Source: Coleofasciculus chthonoplastes F2-STO-03 (GTDB taxonomy: Bacteria; Cyanobacteriota; Cyanobacteriia; Cyanobacteriales; Coleofasciculaceae). From it: DNA of 64,000 nucleotides. Shown in pieces: positions 2,833 through 61,116 of this stretch; within the stretch, counting starts at the first letter, position 1; every line of letters starts with the position of its first letter. Made by a program: the position numbers and the translations under genes. The DNA lies in contig JAVJWO010000165.1 in NCBI GenBank assembly GCA_040222015.1, forward strand, positions 28,712 through 92,711, in the 5' to 3' direction. The notes beneath the pieces are model-generated. The model was not told the origin of the DNA. It worked only from the letters and a program-made list of their open reading frames with translations, and searched no databases.

Positions 2833-3014
2833 TACACAACCTTAACATTTATAGTCAGAAAGGGGAGAGCGCGACATAGAGGAAATTAACCGACGTCTAA
2901 ATTGAATCTAATCAAAGTCCCCCTTTTGAAGGGGGATTTAGGGGGATCTAAACTTTGGGCGCTAGTCATACAAAGTCTTAATTTGACACCAATGCACGTC
3001 GGTGCGCCCCTACC

Positions 3015-3980
3015 TTATCGCTGAATTTGAGCGAAGATTTCGTCTAATATCTCTTGCGCCCCTTGCTGACGTAATAGTTGAGCCAGTTCCACCCCTAAAG
3101 CTTCCGCCTCAGTCGCCTCCCCGGTCACGGTATCTTTAATTAAGCTTGTTCCATCTAAACGGGCAACCATACCTGTAAGGATTAGGCTATTCCCTTTAAT
3201 CTCTGTATTTACGCCAATGGGGACTTGACAACCGCCTTCGAGTTCTCGTAAAAATGCCCGTTCTGCATAACACCGTTGTGCGGTTGGGGAATGTTCAATG
3301 GCTTTGAGTACATCCAAGATTTCTGGATCATCCCCCCGACATTCTATGCCCAACGCCCCTTGTCCAACGGCATGGAGGGAAATCTCCGAGGGTATAACTT
3401 GGTGGATGCGATCGCTCATATCCAATCGTTTTAACCCAGCGGCGGCTAAAATCAAAGCGTCAAACTCTCCAGCATCCAGTTTTCCGAGTCGGGTATTCAG
3501 ATTTCCGCGAATATCTTTAAACGTGAAATGGGGGAAGTGGTAGCGCAATTGTGCCAAACGCCGCAGGGATGAGGTGCCAATTACCGCACCTTCGGGAAGC
3601 GTATCCAGTTGCTTACCTTGGTGCTTAGCGTGAACCACCAATGCGTCAGCGGGGTTTTCGCGTTCCGTCACACACCCCAAGACTAATCCTTCTGGTAACG
3701 CGGTGGGCAAATCCTTGAGGGAATGCACCGCTAAATCAATCTCCTGATTCAGCATCCCTACTTCCAATTCCTTGGTAAAGAGTCCCTTATCACCAATCTT
3801 GGAGAGTGCCACATCCAAGATTTTATCCCCGTGGGTACTCATCGTCTGGACTTCAAAGTCCCGATCCGGGTAGTGTTTTTTTAGTTGTTCCTGTACCCAA
3901 TAGGTTTGCACCAAAGCCAATTGGCTTTTGCGGGAACCGATACGAATCGTGCGAGCAGGACTGGTAACAGTGGAGGACAT
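3015..3980 (-). CDS. hemC: Hydroxymethylbilane synthase (porphobilinogen deaminase)
   Basis: [41 protein letters not shown]. Confidence 0.98.
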
Positions 3981-4146
3981 AGAGCGATCGCGTCAAACAA
4001 ATATAAAGAGTCACCTACACTAGACTACCGCAGTTTGGTCATTCGGTCTTTGTCCTTTGTCACTCTTCCCTATTCCCTGTTCCCCTTCCCCTGTTCCCTT
4101 GTCATTACCAATAACGATAAGTTGGTTTTGGTAATCTCAGTATTCG

Positions 4147-19598: not shown

Positions 19599-19671
19599 GG
19601 GGGCGTAGCTCAATGGCTAGAGCAAAGACCTGTCGAGTCTGAGGTTGCGAGTTCAAGTCTCGTCGCTCCCG
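19599..19671 (+). tRNA. tRNA-Asp(GTC)
   Basis: Cloverleaf, acceptor GGGGGCG/CGCTCCC, loop CT-GTC-GA. Confidence 0.9.
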
Positions 19672-19677
19672 CTATCT

Positions 19678-19751
19678 GGCTCCATCGTCTAGGTGGACAA
19701 GGATCTCTGATTTTCGCTCAGAAGACACGGGTTCAAATCCCGTTGGGGCTA
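19678..19751 (+). tRNA. tRNA-Glu(TTC)
   Basis: GGCTCCA/TGGGGCT; TCTGA-TT-TTC-GC-TCAGA. Confidence 0.9.
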
Positions 19752-19846
19752 TGACATTGATGAACTAGGTCAAGTTGTCAAGGGGTTGAAGGGAATACTG
19801 ACAACTCCTACCTTGACCTTTAAAAGAAGCAGATTATTTGAGGAAG

Positions 19847-19919
19847 GGGAGTATAGCTCAACTGGCAGAGCATACGGCTTTTAACCGTCTGGTTGCAGGT
19901 TCGATTCCTGCTGCTCCCA
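19847..19919 (+). tRNA. tRNA-Lys(TTT)
   Basis: GGGAGTA/TGCTCCC; loop CT-TTT-AA. Confidence 0.9.
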
Positions 19920-19929
19920 CTCAATTTTT

Positions 19930-20002
19930 GGGAGTATAGCTCAGTCGGCAGAGCAGCACCCTCATAAGGTGCCAGTCGCAGGTTCAATCCTTGCTACTCC
20001 TA
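19930..20002 (+). tRNA. tRNA with CAT anticodon (elongator Met or Ile2)
   Basis: GCACC-CT-CAT-AA-GGTGC. Confidence 0.85.
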
Positions 20003-20009
20003 CTGCTCC

Positions 20010-20081
20010 AGCCTCATCGTCTAGTGGTTAGGACGCTGCCCCCTCAAGGCAGAAAGAGGAGTTCAAGTCTCCTTGGGGCTA
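20010..20081 (+). tRNA. tRNA-Glu(CTC), C at position 33
   Basis: AGCCTCA/TGGGGCT; CTGCC-CC-CTC-AA-GGCAG. Confidence 0.8.
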
Positions 20082-20084
20082 TCT

Positions 20085-20191
20085 GGAGAGGTGGCTGAAT
20101 TGGTGAAAGCACTTCCCTGCTAAGGAAGCATGGGGCAACCCATTGCAGCTACTCTTCGAGAACGCTCCGCGAACAAATCCTGTCCTCTCCG
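20085..20191 (+). tRNA. tRNA-Ser(GCT) with T-arm disrupted by a short insertion (probable pseudogene)
   Basis: GGAGAGG/CCTCTCC; CTTCC-CT-GCT-AA-GGAAG; long variable arm; GCAG[CTACTCTTCGAGAACGCTCCGCGAA]CAAATCCTGT. Confidence 0.8.
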
Positions 20192-20230
20192 CTTTGTGTA
20201 GTATATCGAACCAGACATACTACATATCCT

Positions 20231-20313
20231 GGGTCGGCTCGCCTATTAGGGTGGGCAACTGTCTGTAAAACAGCCGCTTTCATGCGTTGCAGGTGCGAAT
20301 CCTGCCCGACCCA
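20231..20313 (+). tRNA. tRNA-Tyr(GTA)
   Basis: GGGTCGG/CCGACCC; loop CT-GTA-AA; long variable arm; T-loop TGCGAAT. Confidence 0.85.
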
Positions 20314-20344
20314 TTGAATTTTGGTTTCAAAGTTCAAATCGAAT

Positions 20345-20418
20345 GTAGGGATAGTGTAACGGCAACATCTCGGTCTCCAAAACCGAGGATCTGAGTTCAA
20401 ATCTCAGTCCCTGCGCCA
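20345..20418 (+). tRNA. tRNA-Trp(CCA), CCA end encoded
   Basis: TCGGT-CT-CCA-AA-ACCGA. Confidence 0.9.
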
Positions 20419-20429
20419 ATCAAACATTT

Positions 20430-20503
20430 CCCCTGGTAGCTCAGTTGGGTAGAGCGCTTGCCTGAAAAGCAAGAGGTCGTCAGTTCAATACTGACCTAGG
20501 GGA
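20430..20503 (+). tRNA. tRNA-Phe(GAA)
   Basis: CTTGC-CT-GAA-AA-GCAAG. Confidence 0.9.
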
Positions 20504-20510
20504 CTGGCAT

Positions 20511-20585
20511 TGCCCTATAGCTCAATGGTAGAGCCACGCGCTGTTAACGCGGGGGTTGTAGGTTCGAGTCCTACTGGGGCAGCCA
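20511..20585 (+). tRNA. tRNA-Asn(GTT), CCA end encoded
   Basis: TGCCCTA/TGGGGCA; loop CT-GTT-AA. Confidence 0.9.
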
Positions 20586-20590
20586 TTTAT

Positions 20591-20665
20591 TGCCCTGTGG
20601 TGTAACTGGCAGCATATCTGACTTTGACTCAGACGGTCTAGGTTCAAAACCTGGCGGGGCAGCCA
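20591..20665 (+). tRNA. tRNA-Gln(TTG), CCA end encoded
   Basis: TCTGA-CT-TTG-AC-TCAGA. Confidence 0.9.
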
Positions 20666-20671
20666 AATGAT

Positions 20672-20745
20672 GCTCTTGTAGCCCAATGGGAAAAGGCACC
20701 ATCCTAAGAACCTAGTTGTTGCTGGTTCGAGTCCAGTCAGGGGTA
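20672..20745 (+). pseudogene. Degenerate tRNA (probably Leu); anticodon stem does not pair
   Basis: Acceptor GCTCTTG/CAGGGGT, D arm and GGTTCGAGTCC T arm present; ACCATCCTAAGAACCTAG unpaired. Confidence 0.6.
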
Positions 20746-20754
20746 TTGGTGATA

Positions 20755-20831
20755 CGCGGGGATGAAGCAAGAGTGGCTTGCTAGGCTCATATCCTGGATA
20801 TCAGCAGGTGCAACTCCTGCCCCCGCCACCA
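20755..20831 (+). tRNA. Initiator-like tRNA-Met(CAT), CCA end encoded
   Basis: CGCGGGG/CCCCGCC with C1:C72 mismatch; CTAGG-CT-CAT-AT-CCTGG. Confidence 0.8.
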
Positions 20832-20835
20832 AAAT

Positions 20836-20907
20836 GCAGGTGTGGTGTAATGGCTAGCATAGAAGCGTCGTATCCTTCTGATGCGAGTTCGACTCTCGCC
20901 ACCTGCT
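20836..20907 (+). tRNA. tRNA-Thr(CGT) with C31:C39 mismatch
   Basis: GCAGGTG/CACCTGC; GAAGC-GT-CGT-AT-CCTTC. Confidence 0.65.
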
Positions 20908-20931: not shown

Positions 20932-21537
20932 TCAGGCAAAGTTTGAACGTTCACCTTCCCAAATCTGAAGTTGTCGTTCAGCCGCAACGATACAATTGAG
21001 AAACTTGGGTGGATGTAAAAAGTTGTCATAAGCAACTGCCATCTGTCTAGCCGCTTCGTGATAGGGAATTTGCCCTATTCCTGTGCCTAACCCAGGACAG
21101 GCAATCCTATCAATTTTTCGGGTGGCATTTTGATTGTATCGTCGAACCGCCAAAAGCATTGCCCACATTGCTGTGTATGGGATATCAGTGCCAGCAATCG
21201 ACATGGGTACTCGCATGGTGGGTGTATGAGCTAAAAAAGGGTGTTTTGGATGACCCGTTTCCACGATGAATGAGGTGCCAACAGGCTGTTCACCTAGGAA
21301 TTCTTCCAGGATGTGCTGCTGAACGTTGGTCATCAGGGAATTACCAAAAAACCGCACAATTTCTGCATCCATGCCCCCATCCATCATGCCAAATGAATTG
21401 GCAGGGCTAACTAAACAGTCAAATTCGGGCAACCACTGGAAATAGTCGTTGACGATTTCTACGTTGGGTAAATAGCTGAAATACTGTTGAAATGCTGCAA
21501 ACAGTTGTGAACTGGGAGCTACAAGTATTAACTTCAA
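20932..21537 (-). CDS. Macrodomain (ADP-ribose processing) protein
   Basis: DCLVSPANSFGMMDGGMD, HTPTMRVP, ACPGLGTGIG; GGAGG RBS before TTG start. Confidence 0.9.
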   Translation of the reverse strand: MKLILVAPSSQLFAAFQQYFSYLPNVEIVNDYFQWLPEFDCLVSPANSFGMMDGGMDAEIVRFFGNSLMTNVQQHILEEFLGEQPVGTSFIVETGHPKHPFLAHTPTMRVPMSIAGTDIPYTAMWAMLLAVRRYNQNATRKIDRIACPGLGTGIGQIPYHEAARQMAVAYDNFLHPPKFLNCIVAAERQLQIWEGERSNFA

Positions 21538-21749: not shown

Positions 21750-21915
21750 GACTCTTAGGACTTACGCAAAAACCCTATCTGTAGGGTGTGTTAGCGTAGC
21801 GTAACGCACCTTAACCAATATATATTTTGAATACAGGTGTTGAATTAAGCCGTTTTGCCCGTGCTAATCTTGCCACCTGTTTATCCATAATTTTTATAGA
21901 AGAGGAGGTGTAGAA

Positions 21916-22545
21916 ATGACTACGATGACGGTAACTGATGCTTTGGCAGAGTTGACGCTGTTGGAAAAACGGATTGATTCGGCACGAGGCAATTTAGATA
22001 ATAATACGTTAATTGCTGTTGTGGAAGTCGGCAAGGTGCCAACAGGCTATAAATCAAGAGAAGACCATGCCTCTAAAGCACGCGCAGCTTTACAACGAGT
22101 TGATGCTTTAATTGACAGACGACGCACCATTAAACGAGCTGTTGTTTTGTCGAATGCCTCCACCATGGTTTCCGTCGCGGGTCAAGAAATGACAGTGGCT
22201 GAAGCTATCGAGATGAAGAATTTCATCGTGTACTATGAGGCAGTTTTTCACACGATGGTATCGGCGTATACTCGCACTCAGAATGAGTACAAAACCGCTC
22301 AAGCACGAGTGAAAGATCGACTGGATAAGTTAGCAAAGGAGGTGTTGGGTAAAAATGCTGCGTCTGAAAAATATCAATCTCTGGCGGATAGTTTCTTAGA
22401 GCGAGAAGGTGTCGAATTGCTCGATCCCACTAACCTCGCAGAAGAGAGCGAGAGACGGCAAGTATTTGTTGAAGAGTTTAAATCAACGGTTGACCGGGTA
22501 CTGTCAATTAGCAATGCCCGCACCATGATTGAGATTCCCGACTAA
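21916..22545 (+). CDS. Coiled-coil protein of unknown function, remotely DIP1984/DUF6847-like
   Basis: Strong RBS AGGAGGTG; repeated MTVxxA motif (MTVTDAL / MTVAEAI) and SNAxT motifs; family assignment by recall only. Confidence 0.7.
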   Translation: MTTMTVTDALAELTLLEKRIDSARGNLDNNTLIAVVEVGKVPTGYKSREDHASKARAALQRVDALIDRRRTIKRAVVLSNASTMVSVAGQEMTVAEAIEMKNFIVYYEAVFHTMVSAYTRTQNEYKTAQARVKDRLDKLAKEVLGKNAASEKYQSLADSFLEREGVELLDPTNLAEESERRQVFVEEFKSTVDRVLSISNARTMIEIPD

Positions 22546-22550
22546 ACTAG

Positions 22551-22832
22551 AAGTGCTGGTCACTCGAAAGTCTCTAAATTTATGGTATTAGATGGATAGC
22601 TCAATAGCGTAGAGCACATGCTAGTAGAAGCATGAGGTGTCGATTCGCAACCGACTCCATCTACCACTACCTTTAAAGCTTAACGCTCAACGCTTAACGC
22701 TTAAAGTTCAATCGTTAAAGGTTAGACAGTTAACCCTCAAACCATAAAGGTTAACGATCGATAAAATCCAGGGCGTTGGTTGTAGGTTCCATAAAACCTT
22801 GAGGTTCCCACCTGGCTGAGTGGTCAGCATTT
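22551..22832 (+). ncRNA. Putative structured ncRNA with embedded tRNA-like domain and heptamer repeats
   Basis: 16-bp closing stem 22551-66/22817-32; tRNA-like fold 22590-22666; T(T/C)AANNN x12 at 22673-22757; CCAGG/CCTGG stem. Confidence 0.7.
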
Positions 22833-22940
22833 CATATTATGTCTGGTTGAATACTCACTGAATAAAGCCAATGACCTAGCTGGCTTAGTGCTTCACGAAT
22901 ATGACAAATGACAAATGACAAATGACAAATGACGAAATCC

Positions 22941-25900
22941 TTATTCCCATTCTCGCCACTGGTTCGCCCAGTTTTGGAAAATTCCCAGAATTTGCTCCCG
23001 TCGCTGTTCAAAATTAGCGGCAATGCTAATAAAAATGATGCCAGCGATTAAGCCAATGACCCATTTGGAAAAGGGATAGCGAAAACTTAAAACAACTAAC
23101 TGGTAAAATACCGTTAGAACAAATGTTGCTGTACCAACCATTAAAAATGCCCGAATTCGCAGTCCTAATCCAGCAAATAGGACAATCAGGCTAATGATTC
23201 CCGGAATGAGTCCAGTCTCTTGATGGAAAAAGAACGCGGCTAAACAAATGATGCTACTACCCAGTAAGCGGAGATAATGACGAGTTTGTCGTTTTCGGGG
23301 ATGTCTTAATTCTGGATCAATTTGGGCAATGTAGAGGCAAGATCCACCAATTAGGGCAGCATACCATAAGGGTTCAGTGATCTGTTGATTAACCAAAACC
23401 CGCCAGATTGCCCAATCAACAAAAAATAGACTCAAATATGTCCAGCGTAAATTAGACTGGCGGTTGGCAACCCAGGTATAAAATCCGGCAACGGCTAGTA
23501 AATTGATGGAAGATAGGGTTTGATAATTGAGGCAAACCGTTAGTAAAGGAGAGATAATGGCGTAATGTTGCCAAGGTTTATCATTCCATCCCCATCGTCG
23601 CCAAGGCAGTTGAAAAAGCGCGATCGCGAATAAACAAGCCATTACCCCTCTCCAAGGGTCAAATATACTCAACTGTGTCCATGTCAAACGCGCATAAACA
23701 CCTGTGGCGGCGACTTCGGTTAATCCGGCGTATATCCAGAGGTTAGCAGCCATGTAGAGACGTGCCATGGCGCGTCTGGGAGATGGGGGAGATGAGGGAG
23801 ATAACTGGCGTTTTTGTCTTATACGCCCCTGTAATAACGCATAAATAGCCAGTATCCAACTGATGGCAAGTCCGATGGTTCTCAGATTTGGTGTTGTTCC
23901 CACAGACATTCCCGCCGTTAACACCATCAGCAAACTGGCAATTGCCCAATGAATGTGGGCGGTGATTTTAATTTCAGTGATACTGAGGTTGAGAAGGGTG
24001 GAACGATCGCGCGATTGCCAAAACCAAGCCAACACTCGATAAATAACCGCGATCGCAGCCGCTACACCTCCTAGAATAGTAAAGCCATCTGCCGGATTTC
24101 CGCCATCGGCTTGCATCATCTGGTAAATTACCAATTCATACCAAGCAATGGAAATACCTGCTAGGGAAAGATAGGTGATCCCTTTCCAGGGAAGACGGCG
24201 ACGCCCTACGCCTATACCGGTTAATGCTGCACCGAGGGTGAGTAACCCGGTATAAGGGGTGAAATACGTCCAACGTAAACTAACGCCAATTAGGGCATAA
24301 ATTAAGGGTAAAATCTCCAGTGCATCCCTAGATGCGCCAGACGCGCCATGGCGCGTCTCTACAGGTTCCTCTGTATCCCCCTCTAAACGGGCAAACCACC
24401 AATCGGTGAGGAATAGTATCACAAGTGCCAGGATAATGTTGGCGGTGGCTAAGGTTAAGGATGAACCATTTCGTAACAGAATCGTATCCGCGATCGCTAA
24501 TTCGATTGCCCAACTGATGCCATAGACACCAAACTGTGTAAATGATCGCCAACAGCGAAACCAAATCGCACCGCCCATTAACACTGATGCGGCTAGGTAA
24601 TGCCAACTGGATGAAATGAGTTCGACGTAACTCTGGGTACTGTGCAGCGTTAGGAATCCTAATTCTGTAGAAGACAGGGCAATTGCCCATCTATCTGAGG
24701 CTTGGGCGTACAAGGCGGCTAAATCGCCAGATTGGGGAATTAAGCTAGCCCGTAGCAGCCACAATCCGAAACTTGCGATCGCACCAACCAAATACCAATC
24801 GGCGACAGATAGGGCGGGTAATCCGGGAATTCCTTGCCACAGCCATGCAGCAAAAAAGCTGAGGGCAAAACCAATCGTAATGACGGCGGTTACCGTTTGG
24901 CGCAAATAGCGACTATTCAGGAACATTACCACTGTGGCTACCCCTAAGCCAATCAGCCGACTCTGCGGTGAGGCTAGGGTTAGCCCTTGTACTAGAAATA
25001 ACGCGATCGCACTCCACGAAACTGCCTGAATGCGCCGCGATCGCTGAGTAAGACTGGCAACTCCAGTTAAGGTTAATGGGGTGAGTAACCATAAAAGTCC
25101 CCAAGGGTTAACCCTGAGCGAAGTCGAAGGGTGCGTGGGAAAGGGAATCAAATAGGTAACACTTTCCCCAGCCAGTAACACATAACTGATACCAGCGAGG
25201 ACAAAACCAATGTGCCAACAACTTAGATACCAACTCTGTTTGGGGACAGAAAACGGAGGATTTGCTGCTACCGTTTGCCCTTCCTGCCTTCTGGAAACCT
25301 CCTGCCTCCTGCCCGGTTGGTGAGCCTGTCGAACCACTGCCTCCTGCCTTCTGAAAGGTTCCTGCCTTATGCTCAGACTCCATTCTGCCACCATTAACGC
25401 TAACAATAAACTTGCCCAGAGGGGTTCGTTGAGAGTCGGAAACCATCCATCGATAAACGAACAGAGGGTTAATAATCCGGCGATATGGGTGAGATAAACT
25501 AGAGGAATTCGCAGCGGAGGGCGGCGATGAGTAACAATAGCCAGGGTGACAGTGGAGAGTAAAAGATTAAGCGATCGCGCCGTCGGATTCAGGCTACTGA
25601 TTACCGTTAACATCACACCCAATCCTAATGTGAGTCCTTCTCCAAACCGGGCTAATTTAGGATTCGACTTCCGATAGAGCCAATCGGTCAAACCTACCCA
25701 CAGAATAATGTAGGGAAATAGGACGACACCCCACCAAGCTTCCACGTTTGAACCCACCTGTTGAGAGAGGAAACTGACTACCTCATCTTGTACCGCCAAT
25801 GGGATTAATCGCCATAGTAAAAACAGCGTTTGCAAGCCAATCAAAAAGATAGCAGCTAAATCCAGACGCCGCCGAGAATACTGTAAGCGCTGGGCGAAAA

Positions 25901-26987
25901 ACCCAATCGCCAACCCACTAACCGCCGTGGCTTGCCAAGGAATTTCTTCTCCTACCGAAACCAACCAACCGATCAACAGTAATCCCCCGCCAATTCCATC
26001 CCAGACTTTTGTACTAAAGGAGGAAACAGACTCACGCGCGTCGGCTGAAGGCTTTCCCTGTCGCGCCAACAACCAACCACAGATTCCCATGGCTAAACCA
26101 AATTGGACAATTGGCACATTGATCACGAAAATCGCCCGTCCCAGCAACACCGTTAGGGCATAAATCACCACTAAACTACCGGTGGGTGGATTATTCGGCA
26201 CAGATGGAGAAGCGCGAGGGGTTGAAGCGGCAGAGGGGAGAAACATCGCAGTTCCGATGACGCCTAAATAAACAGCGACTAATGGAACCTGTGACCAATT
26301 CCAACCCCAGTGTAGATAACTTAACCATAAAACTAGAGAAGCACGGGAGGTAAGCCGGAATGAGTTGGTTTGGATAGACGGATTGATAACCGTAATTCCC
26401 GTTAAACTTAACGCCGCAATACCAACAACTATCCATTCCCAGGGATGACGCCCTAACCCAAAACCATCCATTGCCCAAAAATTCACTGGGACTAAAAGCA
26501 GGGCAATCAGTTGTAAGGTTTGAGAGGTTAATTTTAAATTAGAACGTTTTCCCGCCCACAGGCTAATGCCCCAAAAGACAATGGTATATGCCCATAACAC
26601 ACCATACTGTCCCGCTGGTGGAAAATTCTGCCATTGAGTTGCGGCGAGGACACCGGAGGAGACAACAACCAGAAAGACACCCAGAAACAGCAGCCAGCGT
26701 ACACTCAGTTCCTCTTGCCATGACTGCCAGATGCGGGATAGGGGCGACACAGTAGGAATAGGAACGGGTTCCTCTACCTTGGTTTCCACCTTCCGGGATT
26801 GGGGGCGAGAGGGAAGCGGCGCAATTGCTGGTTGAGGGAGGCGACAAGATAAATAGAGTTGTCCTAATTGTTTAACTTGGGCATCACTGATTAAACCCAA
26901 GCGCAACCAGGTTTCTAAACCTTCGAGTAACTTGGGATTGGAGGCAGAAACAGTGAGTTCAATTCTCAGAGAGCGTGGCGAGGACAT
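22941..26987 (-). CDS. Large polytopic membrane protein (DUF2157-like)
   Basis: Many TM segments; ELSVRWLLFLGVFLVVVSSGVLAA; likely start MSSPRS at 26987. Confidence 0.75.
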   Translation of the reverse strand: MSSPRSLRIELTVSASNPKLLEGLETWLRLGLISDAQVKQLGQLYLSCRLPQPAIAPLPSRPQSRKVETKVEEPVPIPTVSPLSRIWQSWQEELSVRWLLFLGVFLVVVSSGVLAATQWQNFPPAGQYGVLWAYTIVFWGISLWAGKRSNLKLTSQTLQLIALLLVPVNFWAMDGFGLGRHPWEWIVVGIAALSLTGITVINPSIQTNSFRLTSRASLVLWLSYLHWGWNWSQVPLVAVYLGVIGTAMFLPSAASTPRASPSVPNNPPTGSLVVIYALTVLLGRAIFVINVPIVQFGLAMGICGWLLARQGKPSADARESVSSFSTKVWDGIGGGLLLIGWLVSVGEEIPWQATAVSGLAIGFFAQRLQYSRRRLDLAAIFLIGLQTLFLLWRLIPLAVQDEVVSFLSQQVGSNVEAWWGVVLFPYIILWVGLTDWLYRKSNPKLARFGEGLTLGLGVMLTVISSLNPTARSLNLLLSTVTLAIVTHRRPPLRIPLVYLTHIAGLLTLCSFIDGWFPTLNEPLWASLLLALMVAEWSLSIRQEPFRRQEAVVRQAHQPGRRQEVSRRQEGQTVAANPPFSVPKQSWYLSCWHIGFVLAGISYVLLAGESVTYLIPFPTHPSTSLRVNPWGLLWLLTPLTLTGVASLTQRSRRIQAVSWSAIALFLVQGLTLASPQSRLIGLGVATVVMFLNSRYLRQTVTAVITIGFALSFFAAWLWQGIPGLPALSVADWYLVGAIASFGLWLLRASLIPQSGDLAALYAQASDRWAIALSSTELGFLTLHSTQSYVELISSSWHYLAASVLMGGAIWFRCWRSFTQFGVYGISWAIELAIADTILLRNGSSLTLATANIILALVILFLTDWWFARLEGDTEEPVETRHGASGASRDALEILPLIYALIGVSLRWTYFTPYTGLLTLGAALTGIGVGRRRLPWKGITYLSLAGISIAWYELVIYQMMQADGGNPADGFTILGGVAAAIAVIYRVLAWFWQSRDRSTLLNLSITEIKITAHIHWAIASLLMVLTAGMSVGTTPNLRTIGLAISWILAIYALLQGRIRQKRQLSPSSPPSPRRAMARLYMAANLWIYAGLTEVAATGVYARLTWTQLSIFDPWRGVMACLFAIALFQLPWRRWGWNDKPWQHYAIISPLLTVCLNYQTLSSINLLAVAGFYTWVANRQSNLRWTYLSLFFVDWAIWRVLVNQQITEPLWYAALIGGSCLYIAQIDPELRHPRKRQTRHYLRLLGSSIICLAAFFFHQETGLIPGIISLIVLFAGLGLRIRAFLMVGTATFVLTVFYQLVVLSFRYPFSKWVIGLIAGIIFISIAANFEQRREQILGIFQNWANQWREWE

Positions 26988-27179
26988 AGTTTTCTGGAGT
27001 TCGTTCGTAGTAGGCACGCTTCGTGCCAGAAGAAGCGCTGAAGCGCTTACTACAAACAGATTAATTAATCCTAGCATCAGATTTTCCAGTTGATGATTGA
27101 TGACTCAGGGCAAGTTGTTCCGTTAGTGGTGGGGAGGGCGGGTTTTGTTTTTCCGTTATTTCTGAATAGCTCAATTTAG

Positions 27180-27247
27180 TCCCTAAACCCGCCCCTACAA
27201 TTGTCCCTAAACCCGCCCCTACAATTGTCCCTAAACCTACCCCTACA
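27180..27247. repeat. Short tandem repeat TCCCTAAACCCGCCCCTACAATTG x~3
   Basis: Direct inspection. Confidence 0.8.
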
Positions 27248-27310
27248 GAGGGCTAAATCTACCCCTAGAATTGACGTATAAGGTATAAATTATTACTTAT
27301 GAACCGGATT

Positions 27311-27546
27311 GCGATCGCGCCTTGCGTACCCTGACTTCTAAGAGCCTACATACTTAGTACGAGAGGAAGAGTAACGCTGTTCTATTAACAGTGGGCGTTT
27401 GAGAACGAGGAGTGCGAAGAACCCGATAGGTTGGCTTAGAGGTAGCCATCCTTTAAAGAGTGTGTAATAACTCATCGGCGGAGTCCCTCTAGTAACTGAG
27501 AAGGCGCATAACAACGCTCTGGTAACTTGCACGCGAGGGCGATCGC
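27311..27546 (+). ncRNA. Putative ncRNA mimicking the 23S rRNA sarcin-ricin loop and GTPase-associated centre
   Basis: SRL hairpin 27351-27373 (AGTACGAGAGGA); H43/H44 copy 27423-27478 with compensatory changes; 5' and 3' ends complementary. Confidence 0.8.
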
Positions 27547-27596
27547 ACAATTACAGGATCTTGGACTATAATAGTACAAAAATACTAATTAAAATT

Positions 27597-28058
27597 ATGC
27601 CGATTTATTTCTACAGCACCCGTGAAAAACCCTACGGTTGCTTTTCCAACTTCTCTCGCCATGGTTTTGAGTTAGATGGTTGTTGGTGGGCAACGAGTGA
27701 ACATTACTTCCAAGCACAGAAATTTGTCGAGACGGATCGTCCTTGGTTCGACAAAATCCGCGAAGTAAAAACGCCTAAAGACGCTGCCAAAATGGGCAGA
27801 AGTCGGCAACACCCTCTCCGTCACGATTGGGAACAGGTCAAGAATGAAATTATGAAGCGGGGAGTGTTGCAGAAGTTTGAAACTCATGCTGATATCCGTG
27901 AGATACTTTTGGCGACAGGGGATGAGTTGATTGTCGAGAATGCCCCCAGAGATTACTACTGGGGATGCGGTAAAGATGGCAGTGGTAAAAATAAATTGGG
28001 AGAGATTTTAATGGCAGTGCGAGAGATATTGCGTCAACCTCTTACAAATGACAAATGA
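27597..28058 (+). CDS. NADAR family protein (YbiA/DUF1768)
   Basis: YGCFSNFS, TSEHYFQAQKF, LLATGD..IVE..DYYWG.G..G.GKNKLG.ILM. Confidence 0.93.
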   Translation: MPIYFYSTREKPYGCFSNFSRHGFELDGCWWATSEHYFQAQKFVETDRPWFDKIREVKTPKDAAKMGRSRQHPLRHDWEQVKNEIMKRGVLQKFETHADIREILLATGDELIVENAPRDYYWGCGKDGSGKNKLGEILMAVREILRQPLTNDK

Positions 28059-28118
28059 CAAATGACGAATGACGAATGACAATCTCCACCGTTAGCTTTT
28101 ATTGTGTCCACCCACTTA

Positions 28119-28191
28119 GGGTCTGTAGTTCTAATGGGAGAACGCCTGTTTTGCACACAGGAGGTTGCGGGTTCAACCCCCGCCAGATCCA
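28119..28191 (+). tRNA. tRNA-Ala(TGC)
   Basis: G3:U70 present; CCTGT-TT-TGC-AC-ACAGG. Confidence 0.9.
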
Positions 28192-28195
28192 TGAT

Positions 28196-28271
28196 GGTGT
28201 CTGAAGCCAAAGCGGTCGCGGCGCTTGTTTGTGGAACAAGTCAATAGCGGGTTCAAGTCCCGTCAGACACC
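28196..28271 (+). tRNA. tRNA-His(GTG)
   Basis: G-1:C73; CTTGT-TT-GTG-GA-ACAAG. Confidence 0.9.
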
Positions 28272-28278
28272 CTTCAAT

Positions 28279-28365
28279 GGAAGATGCCGCTGAATGGACG
28301 GCAAGCGGTCTTGAAAACCGTGGTACGGCAGCGATGCCGTAGGGGTTCGATTCCTCCATCTTCCT
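28279..28365 (+). tRNA. tRNA-Ser(TGA)
   Basis: GGAAGAT/ATCTTCC; loop CT-TGA-AA; long variable arm. Confidence 0.88.
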
Positions 28366-28369
28366 TTAT

Positions 28370-28441
28370 CCACCGGAAGCCGAAAAGTGAGGCGCTGTGC
28401 TGATAATGCAGAGGTAGAAGGGGCAGTACCTTCCCGGTGGA
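28370..28441 (+). tRNA. tRNA-Ile(GAT), atypical T-loop
   Basis: CCACCGG/CCGGTGG; CTGTG-CT-GAT-AA-TGCAG; T-loop GGCAGTA. Confidence 0.75.
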
Positions 28442-28446
28442 TTCAT

Positions 28447-28517
28447 CCCTCTGCCAGTGGATTCTGGCACTGATACTACGAATATCGGATGCGGTGGTTC
28501 AATTCCATCCAGAGGGG
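28447..28517 (+). tRNA. tRNA-Arg(ACG), atypical D arm
   Basis: CCCTCTG/CAGAGGG; TGATA-CT-ACG-AA-TATCG. Confidence 0.78.
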
Positions 28518-28558
28518 TTTGATCGGGGGTGAGTAGCTGTAATCAAAAAGCTGGAAAC

Positions 28559-28924
28559 ATTTACCCATTATTGCCCATGCATTGGGTAGAGACTTGTCCC
28601 GATGGAATGGGTTCGACAAGAGTAAGTAGTCGGACACAAGTTTTGGGAACTGTATAAAGTTTTGTAAGCATTACCGCAACGCTTGTGACATAAAAATTCG
28701 TGCTGTTTTACATTTCTTAACACAGAGCCGTTTATTTATGTCCGACTACTTATGTATACTTTTTGGTGTACCTATCCAGCCAAAAACCACAGCTAGATAG
28801 GTGACTTTATATAGCCGCCAGTTAGGTGGTGTTAGCCTGTGGACTGGTTAAGTGCCGTCACTGCCAGGATGAAGCAGGAAGTAAGTTCCAATGATGTCCA
28901 TGCTTTGGATAAGTTTGGGTAAAT
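28559..28924 (+). ncRNA. Putative multi-hairpin ncRNA in tRNA spacer, interrupted by a MITE
   Basis: Closing stem ATTTACCCA/TGGGTAAAT and several internal hairpins. Confidence 0.45.
28623..28752. mobile_element. MITE with TA-flanked TIRs
   Basis: TAAGTAGTCGGACA ... TGTCCGACTACTTA perfect 14-bp inverted repeat. Confidence 0.7.
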
Positions 28925-28933
28925 CTTATATAA

Positions 28934-29006
28934 CGGAATGTAGCTCAATTGGCAGAGCAGGTGACTCTTAATCACTGGGTTGCAGGTTCGATTCCTGTCA
29001 TTCCCA
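28934..29006 (+). tRNA. tRNA-Lys(CTT), C1:C72 mismatch
   Basis: GGTGA-CT-CTT-AA-TCACT. Confidence 0.85.
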
Positions 29007-60809: not shown

Positions 60810-61116
60810 CTCTCGCCTGGGCAGTTACAGACTCGTGCTTTTAACCTGTACGATATGGGTGATTGTTGCCCCGTGAAGGGCGCTTCCGTTTCCGGAGTAA
60901 TGTGGGTCCTCGCATAAGTTATGCCTCGGTACTATCTCCAACACACTGGTTTAACCCTGTAAGCCTGTTTAATGCTGGAGTTCTAGAGCTTGGGGCTGGC
61001 ACGCACCCCAAGGTAGGAACTTTAACGCTTAGACATAACGTAGACCGCGTAGGTCTTAGGCTGGTCAGGTATGGGCTTGATTCAAGCCCCTAGCTGTCTT
61101 CTATGGGGTTCCTGAC
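60810..61116 (-). ncRNA. HEARO/omega-RNA (IscB-type) on a non-autonomous IS200/IS605-derived element without ORF
   Basis: Minus strand GTCAGGAACCCC..GGGGCTTG..CAAGCCC..CTGACCAGCCTAAG..CTACGTT..GGGGTGCGTGCCAGCCCC..TTAAACAG..GCGAGG..ACATTAC. Confidence 0.8.

Follow-up and report, generated by a model that had tools for sequence, protein, structure and literature searches.

A conserved structured RNA with a phased heptad tract accompanies a gene for a predicted DIP1984-fold protein in cyanobacteria and phages

Introduction

GOLLD and ROOL are ornate RNAs of phages and prophages that lie beside tRNA genes, and GOLLD copies with embedded tRNAs have been reported; for both families, cryo-electron microscopy has reportedly revealed multimeric particles consisting of RNA only. 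Here, an RNA from similar surroundings is described in the cyanobacterium Coleofasciculus chthonoplastes F2-STO-03. It was analysed within a stretch of 64,000 nucleotides (nt) of contig JAVJWO010000165.1 (positions 28,712 to 92,711; referred to below as the window), in which a structured RNA directly follows a gene coding for a protein of 209 amino acids (aa). This RNA is two to three times smaller than GOLLD and ROOL and differs from them by a phased tract of heptads and a dedicated protein gene, and the Rfam models of both families gave no match in the window or in the non-cyanobacterial relatives scanned. That it is a real, conserved and gene-linked structured RNA is nearly certain.

Short motifs placed at a fixed spacing on unpaired RNA and separated by free spacers are known from several regulatory systems. 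The TRAP ring binds 11 (G/U)AG triplets, HutP binds UAG every 7 nt, and CsrB and RsmZ act as sponges. The RNA in the window shares this organisation, and with HutP also the period of 7, but its motif is UNAA, repeated about 13 times, and the candidate protein has an unrelated, predicted helical DIP1984 fold. A closing helix formed from the two RNA ends together with a tRNA-like module recalls YrlA, whose association with the Rsr protein was reportedly described by Chen and co-workers in 2014; the present genome differs by the lack of an Rsr gene, the lack of a YrlA match and another partner gene.

The 5' part of the RNA is already catalogued in Rfam as RAGATH-27 (RF03100), without an assigned function. 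This motif is said to belong to the Weinberg candidate set of 2017. A literature search for RAGATH-27 by name found nothing, and the RAGATH matches listed concern, judging by their titles, other RAGATH motifs or unrelated topics; the original description, probably a supplement, may say more. What is new here is the full architecture of the RNA, the phased track, the link to a gene of the DIP1984 fold and the link to tRNA arrays, none of which was found in print, the source description of RAGATH-27 aside; searches on T5 non-coding RNA and on tRNA arrays likewise returned nothing on the RNA.

Two further systems are relevant for comparison. According to passages of a study on RAGATH-18, this motif is the reRNA of IS607 TnpB and thus the RNA partner of a protein encoded just upstream (PMC11061315), which resembles the arrangement in the window; the 209-aa protein, however, has no nuclease domain, and the window RNA has no guide-like variable end. 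Passages of a study on long cyanobacterial tRNA arrays (L-arrays) state that these are induced by translational stress and that hypothetical open reading frames (ORFs) are embedded in the L-operons of Calothrix NIES-4105, C. desertica PCC 7102 and Hassallia (PMC8421152). These three also carry the gene studied here, and those passages mention neither the RNA nor the protein family.

Results

Linkage of the gene and the RNA

Across phyla, this RNA is genetically tied to the gene. A genome scan yielded 78 loci (numbered with the prefix L), in 73 of which the DNA past the stop codon was read; five partial-protein loci (L069, L070, L072–L074) were excluded. Both the 5' and the 3' RNA motifs are found in 64 of the 68 cyanobacterial loci whose protein match is full-length; two others (L038 and L041) show the complete RNA in a profile search, about 120 nt past the stop codon, and two (L060 and L064) are cut off by contig ends and hence unassessable. 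The RNA thus lies downstream of the gene in 66 of 66 assessable cyanobacterial loci, with element lengths of 210–296 nt. As for the partial-protein loci, L069 and L070 retain the RNA, and no RNA was found in L072–L074, the contig of L072 ending at this point. The gene is patchily distributed, being present in 11 of 121 sampled genomes of the phylum with one copy each, and the element occurs once in the 7.7-Mb genome of the window.

The same linkage was obtained when the search started from the RNA. A 31-letter degenerate pattern of the RNA 5' end retrieved 21 loci from metagenomes, at least two of them on the same contigs as L061 and L062. A full gene is located 18–320 nt upstream on the same strand in 17 of the 21, a partial gene match (profile positions 75–206) in two, and gene remnants in the last two (L207 and L219); in L207 the gene is disrupted by a small palindromic repeat.

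Phages and other bacteria

The protein matched 737 phage records in a tblastn search, with at least 80% of the query covered in 713. These comprise T5 and its relatives, Bacillus Bastille-like phages, Pseudomonas phiPsa374, and phages of Vibrio, Klebsiella, Lactococcus, Ralstonia and C. difficile. The nine phage records that were examined show, on the 3' side of the gene, a gap of 260–640 nt that is unannotated or contains only small or opposite-strand ORFs, and the RNA is annotated in none of them. The cyanobacterial RNA profile matched the gap past the gene in all 14 phage, Firmicute or Bacteroidota loci (8/8, then 6/6), always on the strand of the gene, with E-values from 1e-14 to 0.054 and a high composition bias in several cases. 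The match in phage T5 is weak (E = 0.048); those on the Firmicute side are L076 (1e-14), L079 (2e-9), L077 (1.7e-6) and L075 (0.0026).

Since an unanchored statistic of the best long-range stem discriminates only weakly (values of at least 12.5 in 9 of 13 loci versus 12 of 260 shuffles), the closing helix was anchored on G|A and RGCUG. In this way, 10–21 contiguous pairs were found in 12 of the 14 non-cyanobacterial loci, and shorter helices in L080 (6 pairs) and L087 (5 pairs). The helix sequence is entirely different between phages, and the RGCUG junction is present in the non-cyanobacterial copies. The first-pass annotation of this locus had staked its proposal of a ribonucleoprotein system on homologues keeping a downstream closing stem and repeats; both are kept in all 66 assessable cyanobacterial and all 14 non-cyanobacterial loci. 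Both phiPsa374 and BC-T25 carry a hairpin with a U run, resembling a terminator, after the RNA and not after the gene.

In phage T5 (L082, NC_005859), the gene is T5.085 (3001–3639), listed as “tail fiber protein” in RefSeq and followed by 360 nt (3640–4000) without annotation. This gap holds the T5 copy of the RNA. The tail fiber label probably stems from the name of a PHROG family and looks unfounded; a literature search on T5.085 found nothing.

The relation to RAGATH-27 emerged from two bacterial relatives whose proteins are 33–37% identical. In the Blautia relative L077, the RAGATH-27 model scores 78.2 bits (gathering score 76.1) on the first 83 nt of the RNA copy, and in L075 it scores 42.2 bits; in both, the match begins 20 nt past the end of the protein match on the same strand, i.e., directly after a homologue of the same gene. 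The window gave no RAGATH-27 match at the gathering score across its length and none at E ≤ 10 in 22400–23000. As the model recognises the 5' end of the Blautia copy and not the window, it describes only the 5' end of a larger RNA. In the window RNA, the counterpart of the model's 5' consensus (..UUGuUUAcCGAAAACUUuAAACUAuAA..) is the closing helix P1, with its 5' strand, together with the GAAAA..UAAA motif. The model has 86 positions, the first 46 of which are treated as unpaired; it includes a hairpin that is absent from the window RNA, and it lacks the pseudoknot, the heptad tract, the 3' domain and the 3' strand of P1.

RNA architecture and strand

The gene and the RNA have the following layout in the window, with the basis of the assignment given for some parts.

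21902–21908 (+), Shine-Dalgarno-like GAGGAGG, a likely ribosome-binding site 7 nt before the ATG; sequence read
21916–22545 (+), coding sequence of the 209-aa protein, from the ORF list, with the stop codon TAA at 22543–22545
22551–22832 (+), whole conserved RNA of 282 nt, starting 5 nt past the stop codon
22551–22566 (+), 5' strand of the closing helix P1, AAGTGCTGGTCACTCG; covariation
22567–22578 (+), conserved single-stranded 5' motif GAAAA..CUCUAAA, the portion in common with the RAGATH-27 consensus; invariant columns
22579–22585 (+), 5' strand of the pseudoknot, UUUAUGG, pairing with 22789–22795
22590–22663 (+), variable module of tRNA shape, whose anticodon loop UAGUAGAA has 8 nt and whose ACCA end is encoded; Rfam tRNA score
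22673–22757 (+), heptad tract of 12 units (11 of 7 nt and one of 8 nt) with U-N-A-A in fixed phase
22758–22769 (+), invariant box UCGAUAAAAUCC closing the tract; invariant columns T207–C218
22768–22772 (+), 5' strand of P2, CCAGG, pairing with 22811–22815
22784–22799 (+), P3 hairpin AGGU[UCCAUAAA]ACCU, whose loop (22789–22795, CCAUAAA) is the 3' strand of the pseudoknot
22811–22815 (+), 3' strand of P2, CCUGG, followed by the conserved GGCUG junction; covariation
22817–22832 (+), 3' strand of P1, TGAGTGGTCAGCATTT; covariation

All sequence elements listed by the first-pass annotation were recovered at the coordinates it gives. The closing helix pairs 22551–22566 with 22817–22832 over 16 positions, including four G·U pairs; a tRNA-like domain lies inside it; the repeat units are exactly those listed, 11 heptamers and one octamer over 85 nt; and the CCAGG/CCTGG stem lies inside the RNA as described.

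For structural analysis, 48 distinct RNA copies were aligned, and 500 shuffles served as control for covariation. The tested model comprised five helices, namely P1, the pseudoknot, P2, an inner helix of 3 pairs and the P3 hairpin. Across its 32 pairs (1535 cells), 98.6% are standard pairs, whereas only 30–53% are paired when the 3' partners are slid by 1–3 columns. Compensatory changes occur in 12 of the 32 pairs; the mean of the shuffled alignments is 3.6, and none of the 500 shuffles reached 12. They are distributed over P1 (4 of 13 tested pairs, 99.0% paired), the pseudoknot (2 of 7 pairs, 97.9% paired), P2 (3 of 5 pairs) and the P3 stem (3 of 4 pairs). RNAalifold recovered P1, P2 and P3 unaided, with compensatory changes in 10 of 28 pairs. 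The covariation thus supports all helices of the model, the pseudoknot included.

The G·U pairs in the closing helix had been taken by the first-pass annotation as a sign of pairing at the RNA level, and they are indeed kept across the aligned copies. Three of them, at columns 8/349 (G·U), 9/348 (U·G) and 15/342 (G·U), persist in 47–48 of 48 copies, those at 8/349 and 15/342 being invariant G·U in 48 of 48, and at columns 14/343 a C-G pair is replaced by U·G in nine copies. Because the kept G·U pairs would be A·C mismatches on the opposite strand, the RNA is made from the gene's (+) strand. The folding energy speaks against this assignment, being lower on the minus strand (-91.9 kcal/mol, z = -4.73) than on the plus strand (-82.4 kcal/mol, z = -3.46), and by itself does not settle the strand.

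The heptad tract

The 7-nt period of the tract exceeds chance. The autocorrelation of AA dinucleotides in the tract has values of 10 and 9 at lags 7 and 14, respectively, and is 0 at lags 2–5 and 9–12. Five successive T.AA spacings are exactly 7 nt, a number that was reached by none of 10,000 mononucleotide shuffles (maximum 3). In the aligned copies, the tract has no gaps, and one unit always has 8 nt. Within the units, U1, A3 and A4 show no or almost no variation across 48–65 copies; either U or C stands at position 2, A or C predominates at position 5, and the remaining positions drift. The U-N-A-A phase is thereby kept for about 13 units over a stretch of roughly 90 nt, and the same spacing is visible in T5, BC-T25, KNP2, Jenst and gut-bacterial loci. 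The box UCGAUAAAAUCC that closes the tract also occurs in the Bacillus phage BC-T25 and, as UCGAUAAAAUCU, in the Brevibacillus phage Jenst. In viral contigs, a 15-letter pattern of the box retrieved at least 117 stretches, and among the 80 examined neither the RNA nor the protein was found; as the pattern is short and AT-rich, these stretches are regarded as chance matches.

RNAalifold predicted no pairs within the tract, and no conserved reading frame crosses it, the longest open runs in 65 copies being 11–34 codons. In the window the tract is open for 26 codons, which is below the shuffled mean of 27.8. A motif in fixed phase, free spacers and the lack of covariation suggest that the tract is a putative array of protein-binding sites on single-stranded RNA.

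Short tandemly repeated heptamer arrays (STRRs) are typical of cyanobacteria. The first-pass annotation had set the tract apart from them, rightly so, since Tandem Repeats Finder detected only 4.6 copies of TTAACGC (22673–22704), the element is single-copy, and just 3 of the 7 positions are kept among its units. A true STRR (ATGACAA, 5.3 copies, 96% regular) is located at 22901–22938, about 70 nt beyond the element. Metatranscriptome contigs reach a word depth of more than 300,000 on this STRR and come from many unrelated places.

The tRNA-shaped insert

Between the pseudoknot strand and the tract, the RNA has an insertion site whose content differs among 65 copies. In the window it is occupied by the module at 22590–22663, which scores 43.8 bits with the Rfam tRNA model (RF00005; gathering score 29). 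ARAGORN called no tRNA at this module, owing to its anticodon loop of 8 nt; a 7-nt loop with U33 is not present, UAGUAGAA having 8 nt and an A at the second position. The loops of the window's clade, all of 8 nt, are UAGUAGAA, UAGGAGAA or UAUUAGAA. ARAGORN called a tRNA in 27 of the 65 copies, assigning no definite anticodon in two. The anticodons found on a single conserved body stand for Gly, Glu, Phe, Thr, Gln, Asp, His, Lys and Leu, and loop lengths range from 6 to 10 nt. Nine copies have a 49-nt minihelix in place of the tRNA shape, others contain unrelated hairpins, and L029 lacks any insert; the tRNA-shaped part is missing or replaced in at least 21 of 65 copies. The insert is thus dispensable and its tRNA shape optional, and it constitutes neither the RNA core nor a decoding tRNA. 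The gut Eubacteriales copy L079 (2816–3285) is 470 nt long and encloses two full tRNA genes (62 and 42.6 bits).

The 209-aa protein

The protein has a full-length match to PHROG 1491 (E = 4.6e-51; residues 1–207 on profile positions 2–209 of 211), a family that bears the label “tail fiber” in the library as an annotation only. Within a collection clustered at 90%, 253 relatives were found at E ≤ 0.001, the best 120 being 71–96% identical and coming from many cyanobacterial genera; the family as a whole comprises 1975 clusters at 50% identity. An AlphaFold2 model from 69 diverse relatives reached a mean pLDDT of 95.5. Long helical hairpins make up most of it, and one end bears a small sheet of four strands. 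Among solved structures, DIP1984 (PDB 3KDQ) alone stands out as a match, with a VIA-align Z of 11.6 and 152 of 152 residues aligned, followed by a next row at Z = 7.9. Foldseek also ranked 3KDQ first (probability 1.00; E = 3.7e-3, above the tool's line of 0.001), and a profile search against the PDB found it at E = 0.029. According to the model, the protein has the same fold as DIP1984.

In sequence searches, Pfam returned only DUF6711 for the window protein (E = 0.0038, short of the family's cut-off), and no match to PF20935 (DUF6847), a family touched by 3 of the 69 relatives at E ≤ 0.01; NCBIfam and the PADLOC defence-system library gave no match. The designation “DIP1984-like” in the first-pass annotation therefore holds for the fold, where 3KDQ matches; in sequence, no curated DIP1984 model matches the window protein. 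Literature on DIP1984, DUF6847, DUF6711 and septicolysin consisted, among the matches listed, of annotation mentions only. Residues L10, N80 and N200 are invariant across the relatives, N80 and N200 being part of two conserved S-N-A-x-T motifs beside the sheet.

Genomic context

The gene–RNA pair is surrounded by 15 tRNA genes, all on the plus strand (19599–20907 and 28119–29006; ARAGORN). They form an array of the cyanobacterial L-array type in two blocks, and the pair lies between the blocks. In 60 of 73 cyanobacterial loci, at least eight tRNA genes are present within ±8 kb, and all but one of these genes are on the strand of the protein gene.

The array carries a further structured element. 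A free-standing copy of the GTPase-associated centre of 23S rRNA, i.e., the L11/thiostrepton-binding domain, is located at 27423–27478 (+) within a conserved block (about 27389–27510). It corresponds to positions 1093–1148 of the Rfam large-subunit (LSU) model (52.4 bits versus a gathering score of 50) and folds as the expected three-way junction; a repeat Rfam scan of 27080–28120 at E ≤ 0.01 did not list it. The surrounding block of about 120 nt is conserved in 22 related loci, on the same strand and downstream of the pair. The copy may be a mimic of a ribosomal site that is carried by the tRNA array. In the window, it is separated from the RNA by an ORF of 1378 aa on the minus strand (22941–27077), which encodes a putative multi-pass membrane protein with only a weak match to DUF2157. 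This ORF looks like an insertion, because in other lineages (e.g., L039) both RNAs are about 800 nt apart. On the minus strand (20932–21537), between the first tRNA block and the gene–RNA pair, lies an ORF of 201 aa with an ADP-ribose-binding macro domain (Pfam Macro, E = 2e-12).

Discussion

The best explanation of these data, to which we give about an even chance, is that gene and RNA constitute one conserved two-part module, a cargo of tRNA arrays in cyanobacteria and, in large lytic phages and prophages, of the tRNA regions. The RNA would be transcribed together with the gene as its 3' extension. The DIP1984-fold protein would recognise the evenly spaced UNAA sites through its two S-N-A-x-T motifs (N80 and N200), several copies would load side by side on the tract, and a defined ribonucleoprotein particle would result, with P1 and the pseudoknot keeping it in shape. 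The company in which the module travels prompts the proposal, a guess from context, of a role in tRNA or translation biology during phage infection or translational stress. That the neighbouring protein binds the heptads as a multimer is a nearly balanced question, which we place at even or slightly below; all that suggests it is how closely gene and RNA are linked, whichever of the two the search starts from. The observations of the first-pass annotation are confirmed, and its interpretation is supported in part; its reading of the repeats as periodic sites for a multimer or filament of the adjacent protein is conjectural.

Contigs of three metatranscriptomes from three studies cover 21825–22829 at a word depth of 199–373 and bridge the stop codon, so that gene and RNA are present in RNA libraries, although contigs do not strictly demonstrate transcription. 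They do not cover 22853–22891, which is uninformative since these are contigs only. A scan for promoters and terminators found no promoter-like site between gene and RNA and otherwise nothing decisive.

Several observations weigh against a co-transcribed module with a protein that coats the RNA. The metatranscriptome contigs derive from a relative with about 96% identity, may reflect carry-over of DNA and leave the RNA ends invisible. With a pI of 5.87 (69 relatives have a median of 6.0), the protein is mildly acidic, and it has a single basic stretch (residues 61–90, net +4), a profile not typical of RNA-coating proteins. Its DIP1984 fold lends no support to RNA binding, as no function is known for this fold. 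In L219, only the last 13 or so codons of the gene are left, and the RNA is still near-intact with 271 bits, albeit with mutations at two sites where the other 48 copies never vary. Finally, the pseudoknot is only suggestive across phyla: in narrow windows, the best complementarity outside the cyanobacteria averages 6.6 nt (shuffled 5.0), with 3 of 13 loci at the 5% level, and in wide search windows it is at chance level.

The main rival is that the RNA alone acts as a sponge or decoy. Through its UNAA heptads and its tRNA-shaped module it would titrate a universal or host factor, such as a single-strand RNA-binding protein, a ribonuclease or a tRNA-targeting enzyme, with the protein having a separate role or being a helper. 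We regard this as possible, if rather unlikely. A decoy would agree with the travel of the module with tRNA arrays and phage tRNA clusters, with a tRNA body that is conserved while its anticodon loop drifts (at least nine amino acids, loops of 6–10 nt), with the acidity of the neighbouring protein, with the retention of the RNA without the gene in L219, and with the second mimic RNA, the 23S GTPase-associated centre, in the same arrays. However, since the motif is the same from cyanobacteria to phages of Bacillus, Vibrio, Pseudomonas and enterobacteria, the partner of a decoy must be universal or co-encoded, and the sole partner always encoded alongside is the family of the 209-aa gene; moreover, the tRNA-shaped part is absent or exchanged in at least 21 of 65 copies.

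A small probability is assigned to a cis-acting 3' untranslated region that stabilises the mRNA or serves as autoregulatory operator for the protein. The start of the RNA 5 nt past the stop codon, the lack of an intervening promoter-like site and the RNA-library contigs across the junction are in keeping with such a role, whereas roughly 280–470 nt with five helices, a pseudoknot and 13 phased sites far exceed the needs of a stabiliser or an operator. In L016, L037, L040, L047 and L225, moreover, gene and RNA are separated by 130–320 nt of other repeats and the RNA is unchanged.

Self-assembly of the RNA into a protein-free multimeric particle is more improbable still. It is suggested by an ornate, phage-borne RNA beside tRNA genes in which whole tRNAs are embedded in some copies (two in L079), but there is no Rfam match to GOLLD or ROOL, the RNA is much smaller, the tract is free of self-complementary constraint and the linkage to the gene would be left unexplained.

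A bacterial Y RNA of the YrlA type that serves a Ro/Rsr protein has a very low probability. Human Y RNAs begin with GCUGGUC, as does the closing helix in the window, and a tRNA-like module is present; this module is nevertheless dispensable. No match to TROVE/Rsr (PF05731) was found in the genome, which is 99.99% complete (control positives in 2 of 14 genomes), and the YrlA and Y_RNA models gave no match at E ≤ 10 in the RNA region of the window. The absence of an Rsr gene refutes this reading for the genome at hand. Passages of the L-array study place rtcB near some cyanobacterial tRNA arrays (PMC8421152), which would suit a Y RNA.

A chance or selfish DNA repeat (a degenerate STRR, a miniature inverted-repeat transposable element (MITE) with terminal inverted repeats, or iterons) and a tmRNA-like tagging RNA, for which the inverted ends around some 250 nt, the heptamer period as in STRRs and a tRNA-like part ahead of a tract open for 26 codons could be quoted, have practically no chance and are refuted, along with a small peptide, by the single copy, the invariable place beside the same gene, the G·U-preserving covariation, the unconserved frame and the failure of ARAGORN to find a tmRNA.

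The two-part module is directly testable by virtue of its phased track of sites and its dedicated partner gene, with T5 and Escherichia coli as a ready system. The protein family is large and present in this model phage under a tail fiber label, next to an RNA that has gone without annotation. A function would provide the first lead for the DIP1984/DUF6847 fold, for RAGATH-27 and for the non-tRNA cargo of stress-induced cyanobacterial tRNA arrays. A more specific version, which we consider doubtful, is an unrecognised ribonucleoprotein particle in which about 6–13 copies of the DIP1984-fold protein sit in register on a 13 × 7-nt UNAA track and a closed RNA frame displays a tRNA-shaped arm with a freely evolving anticodon loop. 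Such a particle would serve to sense or divert host factors directed against tRNA or the ribosome, in the same arrays that carry the separate mimic of the L11/thiostrepton site of 23S rRNA. If this were true, long tRNA arrays and phage tRNA clusters would be translation-protection kits that go beyond an extra supply of tRNA.

Other features of the window

A small palindromic repeat beginning with AGGACTTACGCAA is located upstream of the gene at about 21756–21811. It also lies between the stop codon and the RNA in L011 (6562–6650) and is the repeat that interrupts the gene in L207 (about 1085–1135); it looks like a mobile miniature repeat. HEARO RNAs are partners of IscB-type HNH nucleases, and one such RNA was detected far downstream on the minus strand (60897–61116, 136.9 bits).

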